Shown one piece after another: positions 1 to 64,000 of a stretch of DNA of 64,000 nt. The notes beneath the pieces are model-generated. The model saw only the letters and a list, made by a program, of their open reading frames with translations. It was not told the DNA's origin and searched no databases. Where the stretch lies: the NCBI GenBank assembly GCA_902500055.1, contig GCA_902500055.1_4131.1; one strand, given 5' to 3'. Source of the stretch: Escherichia coli. Its GTDB lineage: Bacteria; Pseudomonadota; Gammaproteobacteria; Enterobacterales; Enterobacteriaceae. A program made the translations under genes and the position numbers. Within the stretch, counting starts at the first letter, position 1; each line of letters begins with the position of its first letter.

Positions 1-248
1 TCATGACAGTAAGAAATAGAAGAATCGCTATACATTACTACATCACGAATTGCAACTTCTTTTGTAAAACCTTTTTTGACGGAAATTTGAAAGTCATTGT
101 ATGGGAAGATTGTATATCCATCGTATGCATTTGATGTACTGATACCAAATGGTGTAGTAGAATTCAGAAATTCGTTGATATGTTCAAGTACTGAATACTT
201 TTTAAAATTAAGAAAATCTGAAATGTCTAACATATATACAATCCTCAT
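1..248 (-). CDS. hypothetical protein, 3' end beyond window edge; possible famA member
   Basis: Open minus-strand frame from ATG at 248 (MRIVYMLDIS...) runs off the window; YNDFQISV resembles the famA core. Confidence 0.35.
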   Translation of the reverse strand, partial: MRIVYMLDISDFLNFKKYSVLEHINEFLNSTTPFGISTSNAYDGYTIFPYNDFQISVKKGFTKEVAIRDVVMYSDSSISYCH

Positions 249-264
249 AAATTTAGACAAAAAA

Positions 265-396
265 TTAGTCGAGAATAAATCTCGACTTGTGTTTTACTTT
301 ACCATTTTTCATTTCTTTTTTACGATCCACATGTGTCTGAGGCTTGTTAAACTCATTCATGTGTTTCTGTACGAAATTGTTTACTTTCTTAGCCAT
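265..396 (-). CDS. small Lys-rich basic protein (43 aa)
   Basis: Hand-translated; ATG at 396 with GGAG 6 nt upstream; MAKKVNNFVQKHMNEF... Confidence 0.35.
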   Translation of the reverse strand: MAKKVNNFVQKHMNEFNKPQTHVDRKKEMKNGKVKHKSRFILD

Positions 397-398
397 AC

Positions 399-872
399 TT
401 ACTCCAAACTGGGATCTTTAACTGTTAGACTTTCTATGTCACTCGCATAAAGAACTACATTGGATTGATTTTCAGACACTTTAAAGTCGTGATAACTGTC
501 TTTGACGATAAAATTATCTAATATAAACCCTTTACTACAGCACATCATAATTTTATCATCTTTGATTGTGTAGGTGTTTTTCTTTTTACGTACTTCAGAT
601 TGTGGTGTAATACTATCGTTATTACGAATAACACAATCAATATATTGTTCATTTGTACTCATAGGCATACCCATGATAAACGAGTTTTCAGTACTGATTG
701 TTAGTATAAAAACGTTAGTATTTGGGTTGTGAAAAAAATCATGCATTGTCTTGCTACACAAAAATAGACATTGAATAATGTCCTTCACATTAAACATTAT
801 ATCATGAACTTTGAATGCGTCCAACTCTAAAATGTCATCAATTTTCCCATTTTCAACAGTTTTAATCTCCAT
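399..872 (-). CDS. hypothetical protein (degenerate famA-like)
   Basis: 157 aa ORF in minus-strand operon chain; no clear FQxS core. Confidence 0.5.
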   Translation of the reverse strand: MEIKTVENGKIDDILELDAFKVHDIMFNVKDIIQCLFLCSKTMHDFFHNPNTNVFILTISTENSFIMGMPMSTNEQYIDCVIRNNDSITPQSEVRKKKNTYTIKDDKIMMCCSKGFILDNFIVKDSYHDFKVSENQSNVVLYASDIESLTVKDPSLE

Positions 873-914
873 GATCTATCCTTGATCTTCTAATGCACTC
901 CATGTGCGTTTTTA

Positions 915-1412
915 TTAAGTCACTGCATTATATTTCTCTATAGCATTAGTAATATTTAATATAGCTTCAGGAACCATTTCTTTATTGTATTCACGTTTTA
1001 AATTTTCCATTTTCTTAATAATTTCCAAGAAAAATGGCAAAATACATGAAGTATCTGTAAAATTACATGAGTACAAAGTACTCATTTGAAATAATTCACC
1101 TGAATCAATATTAAGAGTATTGTATTCCTTAACAATGTTTTCGTTTGAATTGAAAATGTGAAATACTGTTCCCATGTGATGAAGATATACACCATTCTCA
1201 TTTTGAATATTGCATGGTGTGATTACAATAGCAGTGTTGTCAATATTATTTACTATTGATAAACGCAGACTATGTAAACCAAAAATAACAGTGCAATCAC
1301 TTGAACTGCTTTGAATTTGGTCAGCGGTTTGTGTAACACTTGTAATATTATCTCCATCAAGACAACTCTTGATTTTATCAAATGAATTTTTCATTGATTT
1401 AGTTAGATACAT
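915..1412 (-). CDS. famA paralog (FQxS-core), hypothetical protein
   Basis: 165 aa; core GELFQMSTLY. Confidence 0.6.
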   Translation of the reverse strand: MYLTKSMKNSFDKIKSCLDGDNITSVTQTADQIQSSSSDCTVIFGLHSLRLSIVNNIDNTAIVITPCNIQNENGVYLHHMGTVFHIFNSNENIVKEYNTLNIDSGELFQMSTLYSCNFTDTSCILPFFLEIIKKMENLKREYNKEMVPEAILNITNAIEKYNAVT

Positions 1413-1816
1413 TTATGAACACCTTCGAAATATTTGATTAATGATTTTATCATATCGCTACTAATGCCATGTAAGTCAACACCTAAACACTCGTATTGAA
1501 AAAAATCAATATCCTCCAGCGTGTTTAGATCAATTTCCACCTTATCATGACCCAACGAATTCATAATAACACTGTTATCATTAATTGTCAAGAAAGTTTT
1601 ATTACTTGAACCTAAAAAGATTTTAACATGTTTATTTGGCATTGCATCATAAGACAACGATTGTGAACCATAAATGTATGTACCTTCCATCGAACCAGTA
1701 TCTATAAAGTATAGACGAATACCTTTATGGTATTTTGAATCCTTAGTGATCGCCTCTATTAGTTCATCTGTGGTTGTTAACCTTATTTCTTTCTTCTCTG
1801 AATTGCTCAAATGCAT
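1403..1816 (-). CDS. famA-like paralog, hypothetical protein
   Basis: 137 aa; core DIDFFQYECL; 53-nt overlap with neighbour, start uncertain. Confidence 0.5.
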   Translation of the reverse strand: MHLSNSEKKEIRLTTTDELIEAITKDSKYHKGIRLYFIDTGSMEGTYIYGSQSLSYDAMPNKHVKIFLGSSNKTFLTINDNSVIMNSLGHDKVEIDLNTLEDIDFFQYECLGVDLHGISSDMIKSLIKYFEGVHKCI

Positions 1817-2237
1817 AAAATAATACCTTGATCATTTGTAATGTTTCAGACATAACGTCTGATGAAAATTGAACATCAGTGTATTTTACCATAGTACTTT
1901 GAGTAAAGAAAGTAGCTTCAATATCTTCAAGGTCAAATGGCTCATCAAATAAATTAGTACTGAACATATCAGTTTTTTTCTTATAAGTCAACATAAACTT
2001 AGCACTGTATCTCAATACAATTTCATCTTTACTTACTAAAATTCGTGCAATGTTCTGTCTACCCAGTGTTGTAATGTTAACATTAAACGTATTCTTTCGT
2101 GCCTCAACAATATCAACGAAATAACCATCACCTTGGTAAACGTTATGACGAACTTCTAATCCTTGTTGAACTGTATTGAACAGTGCATCCTGGATAAAAT
2201 AATTTGCAGTATCGATGTTTCCTAAAATATCTAACAT
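1764..2237 (-). CDS. famA-like paralog, hypothetical protein
   Basis: 157 aa; variant core IEATFFTQSTMV. Confidence 0.5.
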   Translation of the reverse strand: MLDILGNIDTANYFIQDALFNTVQQGLEVRHNVYQGDGYFVDIVEARKNTFNVNITTLGRQNIARILVSKDEIVLRYSAKFMLTYKKKTDMFSTNLFDEPFDLEDIEATFFTQSTMVKYTDVQFSSDVMSETLQMIKVLFYAFEQFREERNKVNNHR

Positions 2238-50447: not shown

Positions 50448-50448
50448 T

Positions 50449-50775: not shown

Positions 50776-50863
50776 TTTATTTTCCTCATTACCAGGGAGA
50801 ACCATTTCTCCCTTTGATGTAAACCATTATACAGTACTGAAAACTAATTGCAAGTACTTTTTT

Positions 50864-51124
50864 TCAGTATTGTTTATCGTCGTCTTCCTCGATGAATTGA
50901 CCGACGAAATGATCTACTTTCGCTTTGAGGCTTTTATAATCTTCTTCTACTTCCGTTAAACGTTCCTGGTAGTATTCCAGTGCCTCAAGATACGCCGCCT
51001 CAGCAGTTTTTGCACGCATAGCTAAATTCATTCCACGCGTTTCATCATAAAGCCAATAACCATCGGTGCACTGGCTAATAGATAATGACTTGCTTAGTGC
51101 TGTATAGCTAATTACTTTACTCAT
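50864..51124 (-). CDS. hypothetical protein
   Basis: 86 aa. Confidence 0.5.
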   Translation of the reverse strand: MSKVISYTALSKSLSISQCTDGYWLYDETRGMNLAMRAKTAEAAYLEALEYYQERLTEVEEDYKSLKAKVDHFVGQFIEEDDDKQY

Positions 51125-51181
51125 TAGATAACCCTCAGTAAAGGCGGGAACTATTACCCGCCATTATCTCAGTACTGAATA

Positions 51182-51421
51182 TTACATTCCAACCATTGCA
51201 GCACGGATCGCCGTAGTGCTATACTTGAATCCGTCCGGCGTTGTAGTAGTACCGTTGGCTTTTAATCTGCGGTACATACATTCCGCAGCAATATCTTTCG
51301 TTTTACTTTGTGCGATGCAATTTTGAGCAATCCGGTATAATGATTCATCGTTATTGATCCAAAGGCTTACATTCCAATGAGTTTTGTTTTTGTGCCCGTT
51401 GTAAGTTTTAGTACTAGCCAT
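51182..51421 (-). CDS. hypothetical protein, paralog of 53221..53460
   Basis: Trimmed to Met11 (MASTKTYNGHKNKTHWNVSLWINNDE...); shared C-terminal PDGFKYSTTAIRAAMVGM. Confidence 0.55.
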   Translation of the reverse strand: MASTKTYNGHKNKTHWNVSLWINNDESLYRIAQNCIAQSKTKDIAAECMYRRLKANGTTTTPDGFKYSTTAIRAAMVGM

Positions 51422-51511
51422 TTTTAAATCCTCGTTTGAGCGGGGAACCACTCCCCGCCTTGATGTAAAGTATTATACGCTTTTAAACTTAGTTTACAAG
51501 TACTTTTTAAA

Positions 51512-52120
51512 TTAATATTCGATTGATTCCACTACGCCATCAATAACATTGAATTGATATTCGTTACCCTCAATCAGTGCAGTAATGTTTTCAGTAGTGA
51601 ATTGATCCTCATATGCATTCTCTAAATCACGGTACAACTTACGAGATAATTCACGGATCGCATCAGTCAGTAAGTTTTCCAGATCCTCAGCCAATGCCGC
51701 CTGTTTTACAGTTAAATCAGTGTAGCGAGTATCAACGCAACCGCCTACCGTGTTTTCGTGTGCGTAGCGTGATTGGAAACGTTCTACACTCATTTCTAAA
51801 TCATCCTCGTTCAACAGGTGACGGATTGAACGATATTTCGTTAACGCCTTAACCTTGCGTAAAAACTTCTCAGCGTCAACGTGGTTAGTACTGATTGATG
51901 CACCGTCACCTTGCGACCAAAAACCACTGTATTGCAATTCAGCTTCATCTATGCCGTATTCTGGTAGTACTGTTTCTTTATAGTACTCGATAACGCCCTC
52001 AGCAAAGAAATTATCCTCACATGAACGCTCACGATCCCGAACCAGTTCAATAGCCGCCGTTTTTTGTTCTGCGTTCAGTTCAGAAAAAGCCATAACAAAA
52101 GTAGTAGTGATAGTTTTCAT
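51512..52120 (-). CDS. hypothetical protein
   Basis: 202 aa; motif SGFWSQGDGAS; preceded by duplicated leader cassette. Confidence 0.55.
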   Translation of the reverse strand: MKTITTTFVMAFSELNAEQKTAAIELVRDRERSCEDNFFAEGVIEYYKETVLPEYGIDEAELQYSGFWSQGDGASISTNHVDAEKFLRKVKALTKYRSIRHLLNEDDLEMSVERFQSRYAHENTVGGCVDTRYTDLTVKQAALAEDLENLLTDAIRELSRKLYRDLENAYEDQFTTENITALIEGNEYQFNVIDGVVESIEY

Positions 52121-52140
52121 TTTGTAACCCTCATTCAGTA

Positions 52141-52282
52141 GTTGATGTAAGTATTATACGCTTTTACTTTCTATTGTCAAACTATTTTATCAGGGGAGTT
52201 TTTCGTGTGCCTTACTCCTGGGCTACTTAACGGGAAGTTACTTATTTCGTTCCCCGTCCTGATGTAAAACATTATACGCCTT
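52141..52282 (-). repeat. duplicated ~140-bp leader cassette, copy 2
   Basis: Near-identical to 42009..42150. Confidence 0.55.
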
Positions 52283-52344
52283 TAAACATAGTTTACAAGT
52301 ACTTTTTAAAAATAGTTTTCAGTACTGAATATTAAAAAAAAGTA

Positions 52345-52373
52345 TTGACAGCATTATCAAGTACTGGCATAAT
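52345..52373 (+). promoter_or_regulatory. plus-strand sigma70-like promoter
   Basis: TTGACA-17 nt-CATAAT, followed by CCCACCGGGTGC box. Confidence 0.4.
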
Positions 52374-52547
52374 ATACCCCATGACAACAGCTAACCCACC
52401 GGGTGCACAATTGTAACTATACTAAACTAATTTTTCTATAGATACACTCCCGCACCCTATGGGCTACGGCTTATCTGCCAATGAATACATTATGCCAGTA
52501 CTGACAAAATAAGTCAATACCGGCAATTGTAAAGATTTGTAAACTGC

Positions 52548-52784
52548 TTATACTGCAATCGCGTCCAGGCTGTAATAATAATAAGTGCCGTATTGGTGTA
52601 CTTTATTACCTTTTATTTCAGTACTGAATGAATCCGAACGGTTTGCATATGATGTTAATTTAAAGTACTTTGATTTGCTGATACGTTGCCATACACCACA
52701 GATCCGCTGTAAGTAAGTAGTTTTATTCGTGGTAGTATCTTTTACGGTTTTAACTTCAGTCATATACATATTAGTCATTTTCAT
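52548..52784 (-). CDS. hypothetical protein
   Basis: 78 aa. Confidence 0.45.
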   Translation of the reverse strand: MKMTNMYMTEVKTVKDTTTNKTTYLQRICGVWQRISKSKYFKLTSYANRSDSFSTEIKGNKVHQYGTYYYYSLDAIAV

Positions 52785-52865
52785 TACTCCAGGTTATAGG
52801 CGGGAAGAGTTCCCGCTCTCGATGTAAAACATTATACGCTTTTATCAGTACGGTGCAAGTACTTT

Positions 52866-53132
52866 TTATTCAAGTACTGCAATCTTTTTAGTACGGTACA
52901 CGGTCACGCGGTTGCCCTTTCGGTCGAGCTTTATTTCTACCACTCGACGCGATACACTATCGGGACTTTTTAAGGCCGCTAACCAGTACTGTAATGATCT
53001 GGCCGTACTACGCTTTACAATGGCCCAACGTTCACCACTTGCCGATCCCGCTCCCATATCTTTAAACGTTGCCCCGTCCTGGCGTGCGGCGATCCGAGCT
53101 TGTTCACGCGTCGCAAAATACTTAATATTCAT
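52866..53132 (-). CDS. hypothetical protein, paralog of 40811..41206
   Basis: Trimmed to MNIKYFATREQARIA... Confidence 0.55.
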   Translation of the reverse strand: MNIKYFATREQARIAARQDGATFKDMGAGSASGERWAIVKRSTARSLQYWLAALKSPDSVSRRVVEIKLDRKGNRVTVYRTKKIAVLE

Positions 53133-53220
53133 GTTGTTGCCCTTATCGTTGGTGTATGAATAAAACACTATTATAAAGTACTATCCCCGTGCAATAGTAC
53201 TTTAAATAAATTCTATTCTA

Positions 53221-53460
53221 TTACATTCCAACCATAGCCGCACGGATCGCAGTAGTGCTATATTTGAATCCGTCCGGTGTTTTATCTTGTCCAGTCTGTT
53301 CTAAAAATAACATCATATGACGGGCCGCATCATTGCGATTAGTATTGGCGGCAATAAAGTCCAGGGCCAACCGATACAATCCCTCATCGTTATTAATCCA
53401 CAGGCTTACATTCCAATGAGTTTTGTTTTTGTGACCTAAGAACATTTTTGATTTAGCCAT
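53221..53460 (-). CDS. hypothetical protein, paralog of 51182..51421
   Basis: Trimmed to Met14 (MAKSKMFLGHKNKTHWNVSLWINNDE...). Confidence 0.55.
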   Translation of the reverse strand: MAKSKMFLGHKNKTHWNVSLWINNDEGLYRLALDFIAANTNRNDAARHMMLFLEQTGQDKTPDGFKYSTTAIRAAMVGM

Positions 53461-53552
53461 TTTTTTAATCCTCTTATATAGTGGGGAACTATTCCCCACC
53501 TGATGTAAAACATTATACGCTTTTATTCAGTACTGTCAAACTAATTTTTAAC

Positions 53553-53915
53553 TTATTCGTAAATTTTGCCACTGTCAGCCCATACCAGGAAACGAGGCAT
53601 ATTATCCCATGCATCTTGTTTTAAATTTAAACCGTGTAATACTTCTGTACTTTCCATTCCTGGTACTGGTTTACTATACACCGCGAAATTTTCGCCCATA
53701 TACTGATAAACCATCGTCAAATCACTGGCGATCATCTTATGGATCATCGCATCAAGCATCACGGTGGCGGCGTATTGTTCACGCTTAAGCGGCAGCATTT
53801 TAATCAGTTCGCGGTATGCGTCAATGTGAGTTTTAACCGTTGCCGCCGGAAGATCTTTCATATCGTCGCGGAAGTTAACCAGGTTAGCAATGATTTTAGT
53901 GATTTGAGTCGCCAT
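53553..53915 (-). CDS. hypothetical protein
   Basis: 120 aa; first gene of the early-like cluster. Confidence 0.55.
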   Translation of the reverse strand: MATQITKIIANLVNFRDDMKDLPAATVKTHIDAYRELIKMLPLKREQYAATVMLDAMIHKMIASDLTMVYQYMGENFAVYSKPVPGMESTEVLHGLNLKQDAWDNMPRFLVWADSGKIYE

Positions 53916-54028
53916 CGTTTTAATCTCTTAAAAGTGAGTAGGGAAGTGTTCCCGCTCTCGATGTAAAACATTATACGCTTTTTTCAGTACTGTGCAAGTA
54001 CTTTCTACAAATACTTTTAAAATAGTTT

Positions 54029-54125
54029 TCTTTCTATATAGGGGAACTATTATTCAGTACTGAATCAATCCAGGGGAACTATCTTTCTATATAGGAGTAC
54101 TATTATTCAGTACTGAATCAATCCA
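54029..54125 (+). repeat. two ~43-bp direct repeats
   Basis: TCTTTCTATATAGGGGAACTATTATTCAGTACTGAATCAATCCA repeated with 2 mismatches. Confidence 0.6.
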
Positions 54126-54277
54126 CTAAATCATCCCTATACCCCGTAAAACGGCCTCAGACGCATTCTAACGCATTAATACACCTAAGCTATACATTTG
54201 CACCATTCTAATCATTCCAGGGCTTTACGGGCCGTTTAAACGCGTTAAATTATTTTCAATTATTTTGTTTTTAGGTA

Positions 54278-54305
54278 TTGACTTGATCCTGAAAAAGCGT
54301 ATAAT
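54278..54305 (+). promoter_or_regulatory. plus-strand sigma70-like promoter
   Basis: TTGACT-16 nt-TATAAT. Confidence 0.4.
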
Positions 54306-54493
54306 TACTACATAGACGCGAGAAAGCGGAAACCCCAGGGGGTGCGGAATTACGCCCAAAATTCAAGATATAAAAAAAGGATACACTCCCGCACCCTAGC
54401 AGGCAAACGCACTTTCTCAGTACTGAAATATAGTACCATAGTCCGGCCCAGGATAGCAAGCAAATTAATTAAAATTTTTTTGCTTCCAGGGTA

Positions 54494-54521
54494 TTGCTTT
54501 ATTTTTTCAGTACTGTATAAT
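54494..54521 (+). promoter_or_regulatory. plus-strand sigma70-like promoter
   Basis: TTGCTT-16 nt (CAGTACTG)-TATAAT; downstream sequence paralogous to that after 54305. Confidence 0.4.
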
Positions 54522-54743
54522 AGTTCCATCAAGTCGAGAAAGACTCAAGCCCACCGGGTGCATAGTTACGCCCAAAATTCAGTACTGAAAAAATTTTTAA
54601 AAATATCCGTCCAGGCCGTTGACATTGCCCCCAGTTTATAAGATAATGATTCCAGATTCAGAAAAATCTAACTCCAGATACTGCGGGGAAACTATCCCCA
54701 CGCGGTAGGGGAACTATTGGAAAAAACAAAATAAAATTTTGAT

Positions 54744-54870
54744 TTAGCCGTCTATACTTCCAGACGTGTAACCATCTAGCCGTTTAGCCGTCCAAACGTC
54801 TAGCCATCCAGCCATCCAGAAATCTAGCCGTTTAGCCGTCTAGATGGATAGCCATCTTTACTTCCAGACT
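54744..54870 (+). repeat. iteron-like short direct repeats
   Basis: At least 8 copies of TAGCC(G/A)T within ~110 bp, flanked by CTTCCAGAC x2. Confidence 0.5.
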
Positions 54871-55925
54871 TCTGGAGGGCTAGACATATCTACGTCCAAA
54901 ATCCACCCAGGGTAACTACACCCAAAATCCGTCAGTACTATACCATAGATCTATCTTTTGAAAGGGAGTATTCAGTACTGCCATCATAGCCCTCACTATG
55001 TTACCCTAGGAGGATGAAGACCATCATGTAGTACTGAATACTGTTAGAGGGAATCCACCAGCTTGTGCTGGTGGCATAATGCATTAAATTAAAATCAGTA
55101 CTGACACCATTCTGTTAATATCAGTACTGTTTATATTACGAAAAAAGAGGTTATAAAAAGATGTACCACCCATAGGAGGAACTATCCTTTCAGTACTGTC
55201 TCACGACAGGAGGTAGAGTGAATGAATTGTTTGCGGCAACTCATCTCTCTATGTAGAACATTATACAGTACTGAATCATAATGTCAATAGCTTTCTTTCA
55301 TTATTCAGTACTGATATTCTTGAGAACTACCCGACTACAAACATCATTATATCCCACAAATCATAAACGTCCCAACGTAAATTTCAACTTTCGAAGATCC
55401 AACTTTTATTTCATAGGTACTCCAAAATTTTTAGGATCGAGATTTAGGATGGAGTACTAACCAACTTTTTGCTGGAGCCTCAAGGGGTAATGGAATTTTA
55501 CCCCGAAGGGTAAAAGGGTAATTGTAATTAAGGTGAAAGTAATAATTCAGTACTAATCATTGTGTGATTACTTTTGATTACATTTGATGTAATTTGCAAA
55601 ATGGAAAAGGAGCTTGGAAACTACAAAGTACGGCAGACTTCCTCTGCCTACTTAGTGGGATATCAGTACTGAATCATTCACACACATTTCCGTGCATTCT
55701 TGAGCAATCTTGTCTATACTAATCAGTACTGAATCATATATAATCATTCTGTGATTCTACGGTGCTCATATAAATGTTTATATATGATTACTTATGACTA
55801 CCTATGATTACGGGGTTTAGCCTGGGGAGAATCCTAGTGATCGCATTTGTCCAGGCTGAATTTTAACAATTCGCCTGTACATAAAGGTTGTTCACTAGGA
55901 GCTTCCCCTGTCTCTATGTGTTTAA

Positions 55926-56117
55926 TTACTTTCTATATATAAGCATTAAGATATAGTAGTACTGATTATACTGTACATTCTCTTTAATATTATAAGGGTC
56001 TATAGCAATCTCGGTACATCTGTTAAATGCATATCTATTAAATGCCAGTGGAATTATAGATCTAATCCATACTTGTTCATTTTCTTTTAGTTTACTTATA
56101 TAGAAGTTTTTATACAT
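55926..56117 (-). CDS. famC paralog (KEYY...LIFRY small protein)
   Basis: 63 aa; MYKNFYISKL...ILMLIYRK. Confidence 0.5.
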   Translation of the reverse strand: MYKNFYISKLKENEQVWIRSIIPLAFNRYAFNRCTEIAIDPYNIKENVQYNQYYYILMLIYRK

Positions 56118-56132
56118 AGTATTCTCTATTAA

Positions 56133-56315
56133 TTAATATGATAGTACTAGTGTTAGTACTGAGCACAATTGTTCTTTATAGTTCTTATGGTATATAGAAT
56201 CTTTTATGCACTCATTGAAGTGCCATAGGTATAATCTTGGGTCGCATTCTTTATATATTCTTACGGGGACGAATGTTAGTTTTCGTATATAGAATTCTTT
56301 ATGTTCTTTATTCAT
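56133..56315 (-). CDS. famC paralog
   Basis: 60 aa; MNKEHKEFYIRKL... Confidence 0.5.
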   Translation of the reverse strand: MNKEHKEFYIRKLTFVPVRIYKECDPRLYLWHFNECIKDSIYHKNYKEQLCSVLTLVLSY

Positions 56316-56316
56316 A

Positions 56317-56505
56317 TTAGTACCTGAATATAAGTAGGATTATGTTATAGTACTGGTTAGTACTGCAATGATTCTCTATACATCGATTAACAGTTATGGA
56401 ATAGCTATATCTGGCGTAAGCATTATCCAGCGGGATTTTACATTGAGCACTTAGAGAAAGTACAGTAGGTAGTGTATTCAAATAGAAGTCTTTGTAATTA
56501 TTCAT
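56317..56505 (-). CDS. famC paralog
   Basis: 62 aa; MNNYKDFYLNTL...IILLIFRY. Confidence 0.55.
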   Translation of the reverse strand: MNNYKDFYLNTLPTVLSLSAQCKIPLDNAYARYSYSITVNRCIENHCSTNQYYNIILLIFRY

Positions 56506-56707
56506 ACAGGAATAGTATACCTATGATACCTGAGTACAGGTTAGTACTGTTACCATCTTCGTTTGCGTTTAAAGTCATTTGAATACAATTATTGTAGCAT
56601 ACTCTGCCGAAAAATGTATTAGTACTTAAAGGTGGAGTAGTCCTTAGAAACATTTGTTCTGAGGGGCTGAGGTGTTTGGAGTAGTATTCTTTATGTTCTT
56701 TATTCAT
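56498..56707 (-). CDS. famC paralog
   Basis: 69 aa; MNKEHKEYYSKHL... Confidence 0.5.
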   Translation of the reverse strand: MNKEHKEYYSKHLSPSEQMFLRTTPPLSTNTFFGRVCYNNCIQMTLNANEDGNSTNLYSGIIGILFLYE

Positions 56708-56712
56708 ATTAG

Positions 56713-56898
56713 TTAGTGTCTGTATATAAGTAATAGTAAGAATACGTACTGCACTTGTTCATCTTTAGTATTGAGTACTGTACGTATTGCGTCATTAAAC
56801 AAGAATATAGTACTTGGGTCATGAGAATTTAAAGGGGTTCTGGGTACGGCATGTTTGTAGTTCCCTTTAACAAATTGTGTGTAGTATTCTCTATGCAT
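56713..56898 (-). CDS. famC paralog
   Basis: 61 aa; MHREYYTQFV...LLLLIYRH. Confidence 0.55.
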   Translation of the reverse strand: MHREYYTQFVKGNYKHAVPRTPLNSHDPSTIFLFNDAIRTVLNTKDEQVQYVFLLLLIYRH

Positions 56899-56899
56899 A

Positions 56900-57085
56900 T
56901 TAGTACCTATATATTAGGGCGATAATGTAGTACAATTCATATGGAATGTAATTTGGGGTGATCGCACACTGTGTATGGTAAATGAATTGTTCGGTATTTT
57001 TCTTATCCTTGATATCTATTGGGATTAGTGGTATAAGCATTTGGGAGTTTAGATCGAGATGGCTTAAGTAGAATTCTTTATGCAT
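56900..57085 (-). CDS. famC paralog
   Basis: 61 aa; MHKEFYLSHL...IIALIYRY. Confidence 0.55.
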   Translation of the reverse strand: MHKEFYLSHLDLNSQMLIPLIPIDIKDKKNTEQFIYHTQCAITPNYIPYELYYIIALIYRY

Positions 57086-57094
57086 ATTGTTCTT

Positions 57095-57283
57095 TTAGAA
57101 TACGAAAGCTAGGTACAGGGTATGATACAGTACTCGATGATAGCTATCAAAATCTAGTATACATGCTTTAGTGCACATAGTAAAGTACACTTTATCGTTT
57201 TGTGCAATGATACCGCGAGGTTTATCTAATAGATTAGTACTGAGGTACATTGGGAAATATTTTGTGTAGTATTCTTTATGCAT
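57095..57283 (-). CDS. famC paralog
   Basis: Track ORF trimmed to Met16 (MHKEYYTKYF...). Confidence 0.5.
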   Translation of the reverse strand: MHKEYYTKYFPMYLSTNLLDKPRGIIAQNDKVYFTMCTKACILDFDSYHRVLYHTLYLAFVF

Positions 57284-57284
57284 A

Positions 57285-57467
57285 TTAGTACCTGAATATA
57301 AGTAGGATAGTGTTATATAGCTGGTCATAACTACTACTATTTTCTATACTTCGTTCTATGCAGTTATTGAATCCCAGTACTGCCAAATCGTTATCCATAG
57401 GGACTTTGTATCTGGCGTAGTGTTCAAAAATGCTGGGGAGAAATTGTGTGTAGTATTCTTTGTGCAT
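57285..57467 (-). CDS. famC paralog
   Basis: 60 aa; MHKEYYTQFL...ILLIFRY. Confidence 0.55.
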   Translation of the reverse strand: MHKEYYTQFLPSIFEHYARYKVPMDNDLAVLGFNNCIERSIENSSSYDQLYNTILLIFRY

Positions 57468-57468
57468 A

Positions 57469-57660
57469 TTAGTACCTATATATTAGTAAAAGGATGTGAT
57501 ACAGTACTCGATTATAGTCTTCAATATATATCGAGGATTTAGTGCACTTAATGAAATAGTCTTTTTCGTAGTCTTTTTCTATACTCAATTGTTTTGTTGG
57601 TACAAGGTGTTGGAGATACATTGGGAGTTTCTCTATGTAGTATTCTTTGTGGTTATTCAT
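57469..57660 (-). CDS. famC paralog
   Basis: 63 aa; MNNHKEYYIEKL...ILLLIYRY. Confidence 0.55.
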   Translation of the reverse strand: MNNHKEYYIEKLPMYLQHLVPTKQLSIEKDYEKDYFIKCTKSSIYIEDYNRVLYHILLLIYRY

Positions 57661-57668
57661 ATTATGTG

Positions 57669-57848
57669 TTATTTCGTGAAAACAAGGGTTAGTACTGCAT
57701 AGTACAAGTCATACGTATCTTTAGGGTTAATAGCACCTTTAATACATTCTTTCATTACTTCATTATAGATAATTTTAGTACTGAATGTATTGGATGTTAC
57801 TATATCGGAATTAAGGTACGAGAGGTAGAATTCTTTATAAGTATTCAT
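57669..57848 (-). CDS. famC paralog (59 aa, below track cutoff)
   Basis: Hand-translated MNTYKEFYLSYL...AVLTLVFTK; coordinates approximate. Confidence 0.4.
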   Translation of the reverse strand: MNTYKEFYLSYLNSDIVTSNTFSTKIIYNEVMKECIKGAINPKDTYDLYYAVLTLVFTK

Positions 57849-57849
57849 A

Positions 57850-58032
57850 TTAGTACCTGAATGTTAGCATTACTACGTAGTACAGCATATATGGATTATC
57901 ATCGTATATGAGCGTGTACTTAGTACATTGTTGGAACATTATCTTTGCGTGATCTTTGATACCCAATGCAACGTTTGGTATATGGTGTTGTAGATGCATT
58001 GGGATTTTATCTTTGTAGTATTCTTTATACAT
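57850..58032 (-). CDS. famC paralog
   Basis: Track ORF trimmed to Met22 (MYKEYYKDKIP...VVMLTFRY). Confidence 0.5.
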   Translation of the reverse strand: MYKEYYKDKIPMHLQHHIPNVALGIKDHAKIMFQQCTKYTLIYDDNPYMLYYVVMLTFRY

Positions 58033-58684
58033 AGTTTGAAATATACGTAATGAGGTGATGAAATTTCTTATCAGTACTGATAAGTTCCTGTACATGTTTT
58101 GTTAGTTTGTACGCGTTTTTATAGAGTTCTGGATTATCGATTACAGTACTGTACATGAATTCTTCTTCTGGTGTTAATTCTTTGTTTTGTAGTTCTTTGA
58201 GGAATTGCAGTACTGTATCAGTTTCGTTAGTACGTTGCTTTTGGAAGAAGTGCATGTTATCGTGTATTTTTTCTGAACCCATGCAGTACATATCGCCGAT
58301 TTGGAATTGTGCAGTACTGATATCATGGGTGCTATTACAATTCCCGAAGAAGTATACATTCCCGAAAGATAGAATTATAGTGCACGGGATATTATCCATG
58401 TGTATATAGATAGATGCATTCTTTAGTGCTTTTGTGCTGGTATTAGTACTCAATACTTTTAAATCAGTATGATAGATATTAATAAAAGCAAGAGCTATAT
58501 TATTTTTCTTCAAGTACGATTTGAGGTTCTTAGATACGAGAACATTTCTGGATTTTTTCTTTTTATTTCGTTTCTTTAGTACATTAGGGTGATACGTATA
58601 TGCAGATGTAATAGATTCTGCTTGAATACTGTTGAGGTACTTAAAGTGCTTAAGGTATTGTTTGCTGTGTGCATTAAGTTTCAT
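58025..58684 (-). CDS. hypothetical protein with famA-like core, embedded in famC array
   Basis: 219 aa; EEEFMYSTVIDNPELY resembles the famA core. Confidence 0.5.
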   Translation of the reverse strand: MKLNAHSKQYLKHFKYLNSIQAESITSAYTYHPNVLKKRNKKKKSRNVLVSKNLKSYLKKNNIALAFINIYHTDLKVLSTNTSTKALKNASIYIHMDNIPCTIILSFGNVYFFGNCNSTHDISTAQFQIGDMYCMGSEKIHDNMHFFQKQRTNETDTVLQFLKELQNKELTPEEEFMYSTVIDNPELYKNAYKLTKHVQELISTDKKFHHLITYISNYV

Positions 58685-58694
58685 TTGGTTTCCT

Positions 58695-58874
58695 TTATAC
58701 AGATGCTAGTGCGAGGATTTCCCTGAAGGGATTATCTTTTGTTAGTGCGTGATGAATGCAGCTATTGAGATTAATATTTTTAGTACTGTTAGTTGCCAGG
58801 TTGTAGTACTTCACGAAGGTGTCGTACATGAAACGGTCTTTAATGCTTATGTGTTCTATATAGTATTCTTGCAT
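58695..58874 (-). CDS. famC paralog
   Basis: Track ORF trimmed to Met26 (MQEYYIEHIS...). Confidence 0.5.
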   Translation of the reverse strand: MQEYYIEHISIKDRFMYDTFVKYYNLATNSTKNINLNSCIHHALTKDNPFREILALASV

Positions 58875-58882
58875 ATTATTCC

Positions 58883-59062
58883 TTACATAGAGATGAGTTT
58901 CAGTACTTCTCTGTACGTGTACTTTTCGTTTTGTGCTTCTACTGTACATGATAGAAAGTATCGTTTTTTATCTCTTTTGTTCCCGACTGTGTAGTACCTT
59001 TGGAATTTATTATAGTTGTATCTATCTTTGTGCTGAAGTTTATAGATATAGAATTCTTGCAT
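58883..59062 (-). CDS. famC paralog (59 aa, below track cutoff)
   Basis: Hand-translated MQEFYIYKLQ...REVLKLISM; coordinates approximate. Confidence 0.4.
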   Translation of the reverse strand: MQEFYIYKLQHKDRYNYNKFQRYYTVGNKRDKKRYFLSCTVEAQNEKYTYREVLKLISM

Positions 59063-59070
59063 AGAGTACC

Positions 59071-59256
59071 TTAGATAGAGATTAGTTTCAGTACTTCAAT
59101 ATATGTGCGGTACTCTGCTTTAATTAAATTTGTACACACTGTAAGGGAATTTCTTTGTATAAGTTTATTGCCGCTTTTATACGCATTTCTCCACACATAG
59201 AGATGAGATCTTTCTGGCATAGATAGTTTATTTGTATAGTACTCAAATGTATTCAT
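59071..59256 (-). CDS. famC paralog
   Basis: Track ORF trimmed to Met8 (MNTFEYYTNKL...IEVLKLISI). Confidence 0.5.
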   Translation of the reverse strand: MNTFEYYTNKLSMPERSHLYVWRNAYKSGNKLIQRNSLTVCTNLIKAEYRTYIEVLKLISI

Positions 59257-59266
59257 AGTATTCTCT

Positions 59267-59452
59267 TTACATATCAATAAGTTTCAGTACTGCTCTGTAC
59301 GTGTACTTAGTTGTTAGTGTTTCTTTTATAGCAGTACTGAAGTAATGTTGTTTGTCCCTTATACTACCGCGTTTGTAGTACCATACATGGGAGTTGTGGG
59401 TGTACTTGTCCCTGTCGGATAGATTTTGGTAATAGTATAATATATGATTCAT
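59267..59452 (-). CDS. famC paralog
   Basis: 61 aa; MNHILYYYQNL...RAVLKLIDM. Confidence 0.5.
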   Translation of the reverse strand: MNHILYYYQNLSDRDKYTHNSHVWYYKRGSIRDKQHYFSTAIKETLTTKYTYRAVLKLIDM

Positions 59453-59652
59453 GGTAATGTAATTAGCCTTATTATGTTAAAGTACTCGGTTCCTGGTACA
59501 CCTTGTAGAATATTATCAACTACATTTTCTTGGTGCAGGATTAATACATTCGGTGCGGTTCTTTTAAGGTTTTTTAAAGTACTGTATTCTTGTTTAAGGA
59601 TGAACTGTACATCTTTAGGGAGAATATCTAAGTAGTACTGGTGTATGTTCAT
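59449..59652 (-). CDS. famC paralog
   Basis: Track ORF trimmed to Met4 (MNIHQYYLDILP...). Confidence 0.5.
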   Translation of the reverse strand: MNIHQYYLDILPKDVQFILKQEYSTLKNLKRTAPNVLILHQENVVDNILQGVPGTEYFNIIRLITLP

Positions 59653-59672
59653 AGTTTTCATATAGTACTCTT

Positions 59673-59858
59673 TTAGAACTTAAAGATGAGGTTCATGATA
59701 GATAAGTACTTAGTTTCAGGAAATTGATGTTCTATTGCATAACGTGTCTCCAGTCTGAAGTCAAATTTATAAAAGGGACTATTCATATCCATAGGTTCAT
59801 TGGGAAATGAATCTCTGTATTGTTTGTGCAGCTTACTACAGTAGAATTCTTTATACAT
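59673..59858 (-). CDS. famC paralog
   Basis: 61 aa; MYKEFYCSKL...IMNLIFKF. Confidence 0.5.
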   Translation of the reverse strand: MYKEFYCSKLHKQYRDSFPNEPMDMNSPFYKFDFRLETRYAIEHQFPETKYLSIMNLIFKF

Positions 59859-59859
59859 A

Positions 59860-60063
59860 TTAGTGCTCGATTAAAAGGGTTAGGATGTAATAGTATTGCA
59901 TACTTTCTACCCCTTGTACAGCATTTCTTATTTTATTATTCCTGTACGAGTTCAAGAGTTTAGGACAATGTTTGAAGTTTATATAATTATTTTGTGTATA
60001 CAGTAGGCTTTCTCGTAGACCTTTTGTTGGTAGTGCATCGATGTAGTACTGTTCAATGTTCAT
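59860..60063 (-). CDS. famC paralog
   Basis: Track ORF trimmed to Met4 (MNIEQYYIDALP...ILTLLIEH). Confidence 0.5.
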   Translation of the reverse strand: MNIEQYYIDALPTKGLRESLLYTQNNYINFKHCPKLLNSYRNNKIRNAVQGVESMQYYYILTLLIEH

Positions 60064-60068
60064 AGTGT

Positions 60069-60296
60069 TCATAGAGCTACCAGTACTAAGATTTTTGATA
60101 ATTGTTTATTGCTATCCCCGCAGATGGTGCTGTGTAAAATACTCACTACAAGGGTATCAAGTGCATTGTTCAGCATAAGGTTACATCCAGTACTGTTATG
60201 TGTTTTTAGCTCTATTAGCCACGAACAATCCGCGAGAAACTTACCGTACTCTAGTTCATTTAGAGTATTAATGTAGTACTTAAGTGTAGCTGTCAT
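60069..60296 (-). CDS. famC-like protein (first gene of array)
   Basis: Track ORF trimmed to Met19 (MTATLKYYINTLNE...). Confidence 0.45.
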   Translation of the reverse strand: MTATLKYYINTLNELEYGKFLADCSWLIELKTHNSTGCNLMLNNALDTLVVSILHSTICGDSNKQLSKILVLVAL

Positions 60297-60398
60297 GTGT
60301 AGTTCTCCTTGTATTCCTTCTATAGTACACCAGTACTGAAAGGATGTCAAGGGTTTTGTTTATGGGGTAAATATGATATAATGAATAAAGGAGGAAAT

Positions 60399-61304
60399 AT
60401 GTTACCTTTTGTTAGAATGTTTGATTATGGGAATGAAGCTCCATTACCAGCCCCAAATGGTGGTATACGAACTCAATTTACCACATCACCAGTACCTTCA
60501 GCACGAAATAACTTTGGTTATACGTATGATGCATCAAGAAATACTGCTTATATATTTGGTGGTATAATGAATACTTCGAACCAGGATAATCAGTTATGGA
60601 GTTTTAATTTAAATTCTAGAATATGGGTACAATTATCATCACCACCAGTATCCACCTATGGAAGTGCATTGTGTGCCTATCAAGGAAAAATATATTTGTT
60701 CGGTGGTTTAGGTGCAGCGAATGTTGCTAATAATAATTTTTATGTATATGACATAAGCTCTGATACATGGACACTGAATAATACAAGTGTTGGCAAACCT
60801 AACCAGGCAGTATATAGTAAGATGATTACTACAGGGGATAAGATATATTTGTGGGGTTCACCGTCTAATACTGCATTATATAGTTATACGCCGAGTACTA
60901 ATACATGGGCATCGTTAGGTACTACTGGGAATACAACAAACAATGGTGGTGGTGATATGTGCACTGATGGTACTTACATATATTTTACAGGACAAGGATC
61001 TACTCCTGCACAAAAATATCACATAGAGAGTGCGGTTTGGTCAAGAATGGCAGCAGTTGGTGGAGCTAACCCTAGTAAGATAATTTACAATAGATATGAC
61101 AAAGGTATATATGCAGTATCTTATGGTGCATTAAATTTATTAAAATATGATGCCGAGCAAAACAAATGGATACCATTAGCTATCAATACAACGTTGAGTA
61201 ATAGTACTGGTGCATTATTTGGCTCTAATAATAGTGCTGAAATATTTTACGTACTTGGTTACGACAACGGGACACGTGTTAATACGCAGTATGTTTTTAA
61301 ATAA
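60399..61304 (+). CDS. famD: Kelch-like beta-propeller protein with conserved MLPFVRMFDYGNEAP N-terminus
   Basis: Start set at ATG after AAAGGAGG; Kelch-like periodicity AYIFGG...LWSF, KIYLFGGLG...DTWT, KIYLWG...NTWA. Confidence 0.6.
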   Translation: MLPFVRMFDYGNEAPLPAPNGGIRTQFTTSPVPSARNNFGYTYDASRNTAYIFGGIMNTSNQDNQLWSFNLNSRIWVQLSSPPVSTYGSALCAYQGKIYLFGGLGAANVANNNFYVYDISSDTWTLNNTSVGKPNQAVYSKMITTGDKIYLWGSPSNTALYSYTPSTNTWASLGTTGNTTNNGGGDMCTDGTYIYFTGQGSTPAQKYHIESAVWSRMAAVGGANPSKIIYNRYDKGIYAVSYGALNLLKYDAEQNKWIPLAINTTLSNSTGALFGSNNSAEIFYVLGYDNGTRVNTQYVFK

Positions 61305-61316
61305 TTTGGAGGAAAT

Positions 61317-62466
61317 ATGTTACCTTTTGTAAGAATGTTTGATTATGGGAATGAAGCACCTACCAACTCTGGGCGTTTTAAAATATATTCCAGTGATTCT
61401 ATGTATCTTCATGATACTTATACTGATAAGTTGTATGCATCTTCTGCGACGAATTGGGGTACTGGTACAGGTGTAGCATCGAGTAAATTTATTCTTTGTG
61501 CGGAGAATGTTAAACGAGTTCTATTGGAAGATAACAGTAGTGATTGTCAATTGTATGAAGAGAAAGGTACTGGAAAAGTTTTTATCACTGGTAACACGAA
61601 GGCATTCACTGGTGTAACTGATAGAAAAACTTTGTGGACGGACTGTACTACGTGGATAACATCAAGTGGTATTAATGTTTCTGATATAAAATACATGAGT
61701 AGTTTTTATGATATGAAGGTGAATTTGATAACAAACGATGGTACATTGTATTGTTGTGGAACTAACAATATATCGAACATATCATCATTTGGTGATGGCA
61801 CAAACATTAATTCTTTTAACACATTCAAAAGAGTAGATACTATAACTTCGGTTAAAAAGGCAGTTGGTAACATTTATTTGCGAGAAGATAATACTTTATG
61901 GGGTTGTGGTTTTAACTATTACTACCAGTTGGGTACTGGTAATCAAACTTCGATTACTGGGGTGACGATGATTTCTTCGGATGTTATAGATTTTGATGTA
62001 AGTTATCAGAGTACATTTTTTTATCAAATCGGATAATAATTTGTACGCATGTGGGAAGCAGTACGGAGCACAATATGGTAATGAATTTGGCACAGGTGGA
62101 ACATCTACTAGTACTGATATTCAATACAAGACTCCTACATTATTGAGTACAGGGGTATATGGTGTATATGCATGTGTTGCTAACATGGCATCACATATTG
62201 TCAAAGCAGATGAAGTTCTATATGCTTCTGGATCGAATGGGTTTGGGCAATTAGGTGTTGGTAATAATAATAATCAGTACTCCTATACTCCTTCATATAC
62301 TTCGTTTAATACTTCGTGTAATTTGGTACGCACTCCATCTGGTTCACTTATACTTACTGACACTTCGAAGTTATATTATTCGGGTGCTTCATTTGTAGTA
62401 ATGGGTGGTAGTGCTGGACAGAACGTTCTTAATTATACCGAAGTCGATATGTCATTTGTGCAGTAA
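61317..62466 (+). pseudogene. famD: RCC1-like repeat protein split by a frameshift in a T7 run
   Basis: ORFs 61317..62036 and 62041..62466 both carry RCC1-like repeats (LYCCGTNN, LWGCGFNYYYQLGTGN; LYACGKQYG, LYASGSNGFGQLGVGN); a 1-nt shift in TTTTTTT at 62016-62022 joins them. Confidence 0.5.
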
Positions 62467-62475
62467 ATTAATATA

Positions 62476-62500
62476 CCAGTACTTGATACTGGCTTTTTTT
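62476..62500 (+). terminator. intrinsic terminator
   Basis: Hairpin CCAGTA-CTTGA-TACTGG followed by TTTTTTT. Confidence 0.6.
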
Positions 62501-62534
62501 GATTAAATATAGTATAATGAATAAAGGAGGAAAT

Positions 62535-63644
62535 ATGTTACCTTTTGTAAGAATGGTTAAGTACGGGAATATTGCACCAGTACCGAAAAAAATAAAGAAA
62601 GTTATAGCAGGATATGATAATTTATATGTACTATATGGTGATGGTTCGCTATATGGTTGTGGAATCAATAACTATCAACAGTTAAATATTGATGGAACTG
62701 CTACACAAAATAATTGGGTACTAATTACCAATGGTGTTAGTAATGCATGGGCTGGTGGATACAATATTTTATATTTGAAAGAAGATAAATTTATAATGCA
62801 CGGAACTAATGTCTCATTAGGTTTAGGAAATACTACAATTCCATTAGGTGGAGTAGATGTAACTTCTTCATTCCCAGATATCTCTAATATTAAAATGATA
62901 TCCATTGGTTTTGATTCAATGCACTATGTTAGTGCTGATGGTACAACTGTATATGGAAGAGGTATGAACACAAATGGTTCTGTTGGTTCAGGTAGTACTT
63001 ACTCACAGAGTACTTTCACTTCAGTACTGAATAATGGAACTAATCAGGTTATTGATATATTTGGTAACGTTAATAATACAGTGCTTCTAACATCGAATGG
63101 TGAGCTTCGAGCATGTGGGACAAGTGCTTATGGTTCTATAGGAAATGAAACTGGTAAGTGGACATCGTTTGGTTTAAAATTATCTGGCACTAAAATAATG
63201 GGTGGTAATGGGTATAGTACGCTTGCATATACAAATTCGGGAATGTACCACTCAGGGTGGCAGTTAAATGGGGAACTAGGAAATGGTTTAGATACTAACG
63301 TACAGGTATATCCATTTCAATTTAACTCTAAAACGATAGATAGCAAGATAGATAAAATTGCCAAATCATCATCTGGGTCATATGTTAACATGTACTCAAC
63401 AACAGAAGGAAAGATATATACGACAGGTTCGTTTGGTAAAAACGGGTCAACTACTGCATTGAATTTGTTCACCAATACATTAACACTTATAAATTACAAT
63501 CCAGATACCGCCTCGTTGTATACGTGCACAAACTTCAGTGTTGTGTATGATGGTAATGAAACTATTGCTGTAAGTGGTAGTCCTACATATGTACCAGGGG
63601 GCGTTGCCGCTAATAGATGGACTACAATTCCATTACCCAAGTAA
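62535..63644 (+). CDS. famD: RCC1-like repeat beta-propeller protein with MLPFVRMVKYGN N-terminus
   Basis: Start at ATG after AAAGGAGG; repeats LYGCGINNYQQLNIDG, VYGRGMNTNGSVGSG, LRACGTSAYGSIGNE, MYHSGWQLNGELGNG. Confidence 0.6.
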   Translation: MLPFVRMVKYGNIAPVPKKIKKVIAGYDNLYVLYGDGSLYGCGINNYQQLNIDGTATQNNWVLITNGVSNAWAGGYNILYLKEDKFIMHGTNVSLGLGNTTIPLGGVDVTSSFPDISNIKMISIGFDSMHYVSADGTTVYGRGMNTNGSVGSGSTYSQSTFTSVLNNGTNQVIDIFGNVNNTVLLTSNGELRACGTSAYGSIGNETGKWTSFGLKLSGTKIMGGNGYSTLAYTNSGMYHSGWQLNGELGNGLDTNVQVYPFQFNSKTIDSKIDKIAKSSSGSYVNMYSTTEGKIYTTGSFGKNGSTTALNLFTNTLTLINYNPDTASLYTCTNFSVVYDGNETIAVSGSPTYVPGGVAANRWTTIPLPK

Positions 63645-63651
63645 TACTATG

Positions 63652-63676
63652 CCAGTACTTGATACTGGCTTTTTTT
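63652..63676 (+). terminator. intrinsic terminator
   Basis: Same hairpin CCAGTACTTGATACTGG plus T-run as at 62476. Confidence 0.6.
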
Positions 63677-63711
63677 GATTAAATATAGTATAATGAATAA
63701 AGGAGGGAATT

Positions 63712-64000
63712 ATGTTACCTTTTGTTAGAATGTTTGATTATGGGAATATAATCGAAGTTAATAATATAAAGAAAAGTGTTGTTAGTTACACTCTTGAAAT
63801 GTTTCTAATGCAAGATGGCACTGTATATGCACACGGTGAAGATTCAAACTATAATGCGGGTTTAAGTACAAAGTTTGTATCGTTAGGAGCAGTTCAACAA
63901 ATCACAACTGAAGTTGATGACTTATGGTTAGGATCGTTTTCCGTTGTTATTAAAGGTGATAAAATATATGGTTCAGGTTCAACATATGCATTCACGAATT
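63712..64000 (+). CDS. famD: RCC1-like repeat protein, 3' end beyond window
   Basis: Starts MLPFVRMFDYGNIIEV after the conserved cassette (here AAGGAGGG); VYAHGEDSNYNAGL, IYGSGS; open to window end. Confidence 0.5.
   Translation, partial: MLPFVRMFDYGNIIEVNNIKKSVVSYTLEMFLMQDGTVYAHGEDSNYNAGLSTKFVSLGAVQQITTEVDDLWLGSFSVVIKGDKIYGSGSTYAFTN

Follow-up and report, generated by a model that had tools for sequence, protein, structure and literature searches.

Why does a single six-base palindrome, AGTACT, recur far beyond chance throughout a 64,000-nucleotide stretch of DNA deposited as Escherichia coli (assembly GCA_902500055.1, contig GCA_902500055.1_4131.1; the whole stretch is called the window below)? 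The window contains 272 copies, compared with 19.3 ± 4.6 and at most 34 in dinucleotide-preserving shuffles. An over-representation had been noted in a sequence-only reading of this DNA; it is borne out and is stronger than was estimated there. A k-mer check with Markov models of order 1 to 4, trained outside the sites, predicted 15-34 copies for the window. Models trained on the whole window predicted 19-230, the upper values arising because higher orders absorb the AGTACT signal itself. Among the palindromic hexamers of the window AGTACT is the commonest by 3.4-fold, and the sequence CAGTACTG occurs 65 times against an expectation of 0.75 ± 0.77. The excess is real, strong, selected and clade-wide.

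The DNA comes from a phage. By megablast, the part of the window from 52 to 58 kb matched jumbo coliphages of the 121Q/PBECO4/phAPEC6 type (Asteriusvirus, Rak2-like), with vB_EcoM_E9.1 (PP886230.1) as the top match at 97% identity. The E9.1 record carries a direct terminal repeat (1-20107 = 347745-367851), which aligns to positions 55652-35056 of the window on the opposite strand. Relatives have terminal repeats of about 20.7-21 kb, and their DNA is digested normally by ten common restriction enzymes (PMC13070987, PMC11895373). Judging from these matches, the window is the early-gene region of a 121Q/PBECO4-like jumbo coliphage including one terminal-repeat copy, with unique early genes at 1-35 kb, the repeat copy at 35.06-55.65 kb and DNA that lies beside the other repeat copy at 55.65-64 kb. 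The minus strand carries nearly all window genes up to 60.3 kb. The complete E9.1 genome was used as the reference for genome-wide counts, with a single repeat copy counted (348 kb). It contains 897 AGTACT sites where about 100 are expected, a 9-fold excess.

Selection acts on the DNA itself, and the sites are not a by-product of coding. The earlier remark that the hexamer appears inside coding regions proved correct: by a crude open reading frame (ORF) call, 194 of the 272 window sites are wholly coding and 78 lie at least partly outside (3.6 versus 7.9 per kb). In E9.1 the coding sites number 747 of 897, so that about 80% of sites are coding. They use all three reading frames, and their placement along E9.1 genes is uniform. 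The called coding sequences of the window hold 197 sites, compared with 56 ± 5.7 after synonymous-codon shuffles and 23 after codon-order shuffles. In E9.1, 376 of the 705 Ser-Thr dipeptides are encoded as AGT-ACT, against 106 expected. The dipeptides Ser-Thr and Val-Leu are themselves over-represented, 1.42-fold and 1.35-fold, while Thr-Ser and Leu-Val are not. Therefore, the AGTACT DNA word has reshaped the proteome. The sites are spread across almost all genes and are not restricted to paralogue families. This spread, together with the dinucleotide, Markov, codon-order and synonymous shuffles, rules out an artefact of composition, codon usage or paralogy.

Comparison with phage EC.P1, which is 83% identical over window 1-20 kb, revealed that 48 of 63 aligned AGTACT sites (76%) are conserved, compared with 43% of all hexamers. 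In addition, 15 sites are found only in the window and 33 only in EC.P1, gains and losses that leave the density unchanged. Since conservation exceeds the background while sites are gained and lost, this alignment indicates that AGTACT is under purifying selection plus turnover, with its density maintained. Orthologous sites shared across genera were found at column 987 of the portal alignment and at columns 1741 and 2109 of the gp46 alignment; most sites are lineage-specific. Across window ~1-35 kb, where orthologous sites differ by a single step, the change is more often an A/T transversion (positions 1/6 and 3/4) than a transition.

The spacing of the sites is also non-random. Outside the repeat, AGTACT is more evenly spaced along E9.1 than expected (coefficient of variation 0.80-0.81, P ~0.001), and between 130 and 260 kb the longest gap is 2103 bp, compared with 3574 bp in simulations (P<0.0002). 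Leaving aside two blocks, gaps do not exceed 2.1 kb. Just 2 of the 74 E9.1 genes of at least 900 bp lack the hexamer, one of them a mobile-type HNH endonuclease gene. HNH endonuclease genes at E9.1 140570-141994 and 322471-324434 sit in some of the longest AGTACT-free stretches. HNH genes without the hexamer fit recent acquisition, and the motif density may therefore mark foreign inserts. Helical phasing was limited to a small excess at 20, 40 and 60 bp, which is promoter-derived.

The same enrichment is found in related phages of other hosts. In the sampled structural-gene regions, AGTACT occurs 82 times versus 11 expected in Yersinia fHe-Yen9-04, 79 versus 10 in a Klebsiella Rak2-like phage, 84 versus 12 in Cronobacter GAP32 and 65 versus 11 in Salmonella Munch. 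The excess in these relatives is 6-8-fold, and five Enterobacterales-infecting genera show it in all. By comparison, Pseudomonas PAC2 (PA5oct-like) has no copy versus 14.3 expected, AGTACT being the sole absentee among the hexamer palindromes whose expectation is 4 or more. Agrobacterium Atu_ph07 has a normal count (3 versus 3.8), and the unrelated coliphage alia has none (0 versus 11.6). With PAC2 at zero and its relatives enriched, AGTACT is selected in opposite directions in related phages. No description of AGTACT enrichment was found in the full-text literature searched, nor in the papers on CBB, fEgEco12 and Sharanji, the first of which lists promoters of a related phage with no mention of the motif.

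The enrichment stands against a background of extreme loss. In the window 27 palindromic hexamers have no copy, and in the 348 kb of E9.1 there are 22 other palindromic hexamers at zero with expectations up to 39 (GCATGC, CTGCAG, GGTACC, TGCGCA, GGATCC and others). The tetramer GCGC is also missing from E9.1 (0 versus 181 expected); it is absent in all five enterobacterial genera sampled and normal in the Pseudomonas and Agrobacterium relatives. No phage purges palindromes of the restriction type more strongly than this clade does, and AGTACT is the one striking exception. Restriction avoidance, which the sequence-only reading had offered as one explanation, is the opposite of what is seen at AGTACT. 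As a separate observation, the E. coli Chi octamer GCTGGTGG occurs in E9.1 in 17 and 13 copies per strand versus about 1.1 each, roughly 13-fold over. Nine of the 17 copies of one orientation lie inside the terminal repeat, some in terminator-like hairpins, with examples in the window at about 44.56 and 48.68-48.70 kb.

At the 272 window sites the palindrome extends weakly and symmetrically into its flanks, to (T)TC-AGTACT-GA(A). About 45-50% of sites have C at -1, and the same range holds for G at +1; the two are preferred independently, in coding and non-coding DNA alike. At position -1 specifically, C stands in 49% of window sites and G, which is depleted, in only 7%.

The sites are not distributed uniformly (Table 1). 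Per kb of E9.1 there are 6-7 sites in the terminal repeat, 2.5-4 in the regions of small early genes towards either end and 1.2-2 in the structural and replication genes at the centre. The window has two AGTACT-free stretches, 20130-27847 and 30290-35186, the first being the block gapA and the second containing the block gapB. The clustering that had been reported at 53.9-55.9 kb was confirmed, four of these sites having the form TCAGTACTGAAT. The region had been called ORF-free; it is ORF-poor, and holds a few short, doubtful ORFs.

Table 1. Features of the window and promoter registers of AGTACT in the terminal repeat
Feature	Position or number	Strand	Observation
AGTACT copies	1..64000		272 copies, 65 as CAGTACTG
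Packed early genes of about 120-200 amino acids	1..20129	-	68 AGTACT, nearly all coding; sense AGTACA enriched, 37 versus 10 on the other strand
Block gapA	20130..27847	-	0 AGTACT; 39 sense (C)AGTACA, 0 opposite; GTAC 3.5-fold enriched
Block gapB	30290..35055	-	Tandem paralogues of about 70-90 amino acids abutting the repeat; 0 AGTACT, no GTAC enrichment
Terminal repeat copy, about 20.6 kb	35056..55652	-	139 AGTACT (6.7 per kb); many sigma70-type early promoters, each with a 5'-leader hairpin
Example early promoter, AGTACT-A-TTGACA-N9-AGTACT-GG-CATAAT	47636..47671	-	Sites 47666 and 47644, registers -42 and -20
Example early promoter, AGTACT-TGCAA...AGTACT-G-TATAAT	50826..50863	-	Sites 50853 and 50833, registers -39 and -19
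ORF-poor region across the physical left end of the repeat (about 55652)	53916..55925		20 AGTACT, 14 as CAGTACTG, often as TGATTCAGTACTGAAT
Unique DNA bordering the repeat copy on the right-hand side	55653..64000		Tiny genes, then RCC1-like genes (+ strand); 48 AGTACT
Register -19/-20	16 promoters		AGTACT-G-TATAAT or AGTACT-GG-CATAAT
Register -29/-30	4 promoters		TTGAC-AGTACT
Register -39	9 promoters		AGTAC-TTGCAA
Register -41 to -43	4 promoters		AGTACT-A-TTGACA

The block gapA has its own variant of the word. On the plus strand it carries 39 copies of TGTACT, all of which are (C)AGTACA in the sense direction (frames 13/11/10). The core AGTAC occurs 40 times in sense and 0 times on the other strand, a 9-fold enrichment, and keeps the left flank TTCAGTAC. 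The orthologous blocks have 0 AGTACT and 39 TGTACT (+ strand) in Ecwhy_1 and 5 and 27 in ph0011, with about half of the positions shared; the genes themselves are Asteriusvirus-only and fast-evolving. Across E9.1 20-60 kb, which corresponds to window ~1-35 kb, AGTACA occurs 25, 37, 17 and 12 times per 10 kb versus about 4 expected. Outside that region non-palindromic AGTAC units are at about 1-2 times expectation on either strand. Within the block at 20.1-27.8 kb, sense AGTTCA is found 18 times versus 4 expected, with 0 on the other strand. Nearer to the repeat, at window 29080-34958, lies a tandem array of about 25 paralogous genes of 65-92 amino acids directly outside it, in which AGTACT is present only in the distal members (29.1-30.4 kb).

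Several other features were observed at the outer end of the repeat. The cumulative GC skew has its minimum at the repeat end and ORF-poor region, and near 56 kb the skew turns from -0.1 to +0.2, while the tiny genes (about 60-70 amino acids) at window ~55.9-60.3 kb are still on the minus strand. TGATTAC repeats with 10-bp spacing at 55565-55598 and 55775-55808 flank the inferred repeat boundary (~55652) and may be signals for terminase recognition or cutting. An array on the minus strand at 54749-54900, inside the ORF-poor terminal region, consists of about 19 tandem units of 8 bp (GCTAGACG/GCTAAACG/GCTGGATG); origin, packaging site and protein-binding array are its possible roles.

The gene strand of the terminal repeat has 37 sigma70-like promoters, 25 of which carry AGTACT, and only in the four registers of Table 1. 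These registers abut the -35 and -10 hexamers and all fall within the RNA polymerase footprint, which suits an operator or a methylation-sensitive contact. The -19/-20 register is common to at least eight unrelated spacer sequences; therefore, gene duplication alone is insufficient to account for it. In the promoter at 47636-47671, the last T of AGTACT and the next G form the extended -10 'TG'. Further copies are found upstream of promoters at -59 to -62. The earlier statement placed the hexamer directly before the -10 of most promoters; this is right for 16 of the 37, with 25 having it somewhere in the core, and 'most' was an overstatement. Its position relative to the -10 and -35 is fixed, and it is not confined to promoters. 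With about 80% of sites coding, including those in late structural genes, AGTACT is therefore not simply a promoter element.

From promoter to ribosome-binding site runs a conserved, hairpin-forming 5'-leader, TATAAT-(A/G)(G/T)TTTACATC-AAGGGGAGAA...TTCTCCCC. The hairpin lies downstream of most early promoters at window 35.9-53.6 kb on the minus strand and resembles the promoter-early stem-loop cassettes of T4-type phages. A four-copy module on the same strand (36513-36540, 39268-39295, 42274-42301 and 45664-45691) has the -35 hexamer TTGACT inside a hairpin with a 12-bp stem, AAAGGGATTGACTCCGGTCAGTCCCTTT. The hairpin is followed by TATTAT, about 100 nt of conserved non-coding sequence and a TTCAGTACTGAAAACTATTTTTAAAAAGTACTTGCA promoter. 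The module may be a small-RNA gene; an Rfam scan of the window gave nothing at the gathering threshold.

Based on these results, we propose, with a probability of roughly 0.4, that AGTACT is a selected genome-wide recognition word of a clade-encoded protein, possibly the conserved orphan methyltransferase, and that its nearest analogue is the HIP1 palindrome of cyanobacteria. The sequence-only reading had considered a regulator site or a DNA-modification target. A site recognized by a sequence-specific protein remains the best reading, and the association with promoters is real yet covers a minority of the sites. We infer that such a protein reads AGTACT, that the methyltransferase may be this protein and that promoters may be affected. 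Selection on the DNA holds AGTACT at a high, even density over the whole phage chromosome, and its reader would be a putative two-fold-symmetric, sequence-specific protein of the phage clade. The genome encodes two orphan methyltransferases, one of the C5 type (PF00145; orthologue of XDC03709.1) and one Dam-like (PF05869; XDC03394.1), the former conserved in Asteriusvirus, Erwinia, GAP32 and K64-1 phages. Our leading candidate, and an obvious one, is this C5 cytosine methyltransferase, acting by itself or together with a reader. Phage DNA would then bear a mark, mostly missing from host DNA, in every stretch of up to about 2 kb. AGTACT is a restriction-type site that others purge, and its ~900 copies therefore imply specific protection. 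Protecting these copies, of a restriction target that other coliphages have eliminated, would be a second role of the mark. Early promoters of the sigma70 type have the hexamer packed into their sole free registers (-19/-20, -29/-30 and -39 to -43), and its occupancy or methylation state there would modulate early transcription from the terminal repeat.

A number of observations weigh against this proposal. Phage alia has a 52%-identical homologue of the C5 methyltransferase yet zero AGTACT. Among the single-step AGTACT differences between the window and EC.P1, C-to-T is not the commonest, and the lost sites therefore give no support for 5-methylcytosine at AGTACT. A general GTAC methylase is ruled out, as GGTACC and CGTACG are at zero in E9.1. 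Pfam and PHROGs scans of the 43 terminal-repeat proteins gave no recognizable DNA-binding domain; the matches were limited to a DksA-like zinc finger, GNAT and ParE-like domains and, weakly, a kinase. The helix-turn-helix protein beside the GAP32 sigma factor has no E9.1 orthologue. The advantage of a high AGTACT density is only presumed, and the 39:0 strand bias of AGTACA in gapA is not predicted by a purely symmetric double-strand reader.

A bolder version of the proposal, which we consider doubtful, is that AGTACT serves as a chromosome-wide 'self' tag of a jumbo phage that forms no nucleus, read at least every 2 kb, and in addition as an early-promoter clock. A methylase-reader pair or a multivalent binder would coat, condense or compartmentalize the phage DNA selectively. 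The tag in the early promoters of the first-entering repeat would act as the clock, telling virion DNA from newly replicated DNA and switching early transcription off. On this view, the block with strand-specific AGTACA would have been half-tagged on purpose.

Because gapA is unexplained by a simple symmetric reader, a strand-specific rival was considered. It holds that the selected unit is approximately 5'-(TT)CAGTAC-3', read on single-stranded DNA or by a one-direction machine, such as a Chi-like signal for a phage end-processing nuclease or helicase, or a favoured site of lagging-strand priming. In the palindrome two such units, one on each strand, would overlap and so give a signal working in either direction. 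The one-sided, 9-fold enrichment in gapA with its left flank retained and the excess of sense AGTACA beside the block point this way. Two overlapped units would give symmetric flanks, and the even spacing, with gaps up to about 2 kb, is comparable in scale with Okazaki fragments or processing by nucleases. The host Chi sequence is over-represented too (about 13-fold), so oriented DNA signals are under selection in this genome. However, outside E9.1 20-60 kb the non-palindromic units are near expectation; therefore, it is the palindromic form that is selected nearly everywhere. Known primases recognize trinucleotides and do not depend on enrichment, and no phage Chi-like system is known for this clade. 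We regard this rival as somewhat unlikely. Another possibility is that AGTACT is primarily a component of early promoters, as an RNA polymerase contact or as an operator at which a bound repressor shuts off early transcription, the coding copies being incidental. The 25 promoters with discrete registers abutting the -35 and -10, the extra upstream copies and an intergenic density about twice the coding density all agree with it. But 12 of the 37 promoters lack the hexamer, the 747 coding sites are spread evenly along genes, and late structural genes are still 4-6-fold enriched. Moreover, the coding sites are selected to the point of altering protein sequences. We consider a primary promoter role unlikely.

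Enrichment without function was weighed as well. A neutral biased repair of the methyl-directed, very-short-patch type could make and keep the sites, as proposed earlier for cyanobacterial HIP1 (PMC4390886). Orphan methyltransferases are present in the phage, the sites turn over rapidly at a maintained density, and recently mobile HNH endonuclease genes are devoid of sites, as if still unconverted. However, none of the expected one-mismatch neighbours, the substrate words of such repair, is depleted (AGTATT/AATACT at 1.23), and none of six proteins scanned, two annotated endonucleases and those encoded beside the two methyltransferase genes, matches the Vsr domain. Even spacing and altered amino-acid sequences point to selection, although drive could alter proteins too. 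On balance we find such repair quite improbable. Host operators of the LexA, TrpR, ArgR and Cra-like kind presumably do not fit, given their half-site arrangement. The host nucleoid-occlusion factor SlmA, by contrast, shares the central hexamer AGTACT in its 12-bp site GTGAGTACTCAC, and the enrichment is seen in Enterobacterales phages and not in Pseudomonas or Agrobacterium ones; phage DNA that bound and activated SlmA would block host cell division. SlmA has a strong requirement for G1 and T2 and for a purine at position 3 (PMC3020112). In the phage the outer GTR/YAC is absent, the base before AGTACT being mostly C and rarely G, and GTRAGYRCTYAC is not found once in either the window or the 348-kb genome, with only 10-13 half-matches. 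The flank test thus effectively refutes SlmA binding, and we give this explanation almost no credence.

The proposed recognition word can be compared with several known systems. The highly iterated palindromes (HIPs) of cyanobacteria are found together with cognate orphan methyltransferases, and selection acts on them (Elhai 2015, PMC4390886; Xu, Lawrence and Durand 2018, PMC5861425). AGTACT resembles them as a short, hyper-abundant palindrome present about once per 0.4-1 kb, in excess over composition, within and between ORFs without a gene-level role, conserved above neutral background and spaced non-randomly. Orphan DNA methyltransferases are encoded in the same genomes. HIP1 proper is GCGATCGC, whereas AGTACT is another, AT-rich word of 6 bp with a weak 8-12 bp extension, and occurs in a virus. 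It is therefore an analogue of HIP1 and not a member. The excess also differs (9-fold, compared with 15-300-fold for HIPs), and the extreme purging of other palindromes, the fixed sigma70 registers, the terminal cluster and the local strand-specific variant block are peculiar to AGTACT, whose cognate methylase is a candidate only.

Promoter-early stem-loops (PeSLs), reportedly described by Arbiol et al. in 2010, are said to be intergenic cassettes of T4-type phages. The small early genes of the repeat are similar in that each lies behind a sigma70 promoter and a conserved stem-loop (GGGGAGAA...TTCTCCCC). PeSLs are not known to us to carry AGTACT, and intergenic cassettes cannot explain a hexamer found throughout coding DNA. 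Chi, DNA uptake sequences and KOPS are asymmetric, oriented words, each read by a DNA-processing machine. Like them, AGTACT is over-represented, frame-independent and selected for density; unlike them, it is palindromic, and only its gapA variant is oriented. The hexamer is also the target of the ScaI/Eco255I type II restriction-modification systems, the same word that is fully purged in PAC2 and alia, as a restriction target would be, and enriched in this phage. No cognate AGTACT endonuclease or methylase has been identified in the phage. A viral methylation context linked to AGTACT is mentioned for mollivirus (PMC7253447). The SlmA sites of E. coli, as palindromes centred on AGTACT, are alike only in that centre (PMC3020112).

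By analogy, AGTACT may be regarded as a highly iterated palindrome of a phage, a kind of element previously described for cyanobacteria. HIPs have been known there for three decades without an agreed function, and the phage version would offer a tractable model, since a genome of 350 kb propagated on E. coli is open to digestion, methylome sequencing and recoding. The genome has been shaped in both directions, most restriction palindromes being totally purged and one strongly enriched, to an extent that alters hundreds of amino-acid pairs in the proteome. AGTACT provides a compact signature for recognizing this phage clade and foreign inserts, and recoding or engineering of these jumbo phages, which are therapeutic candidates, should reckon with it.

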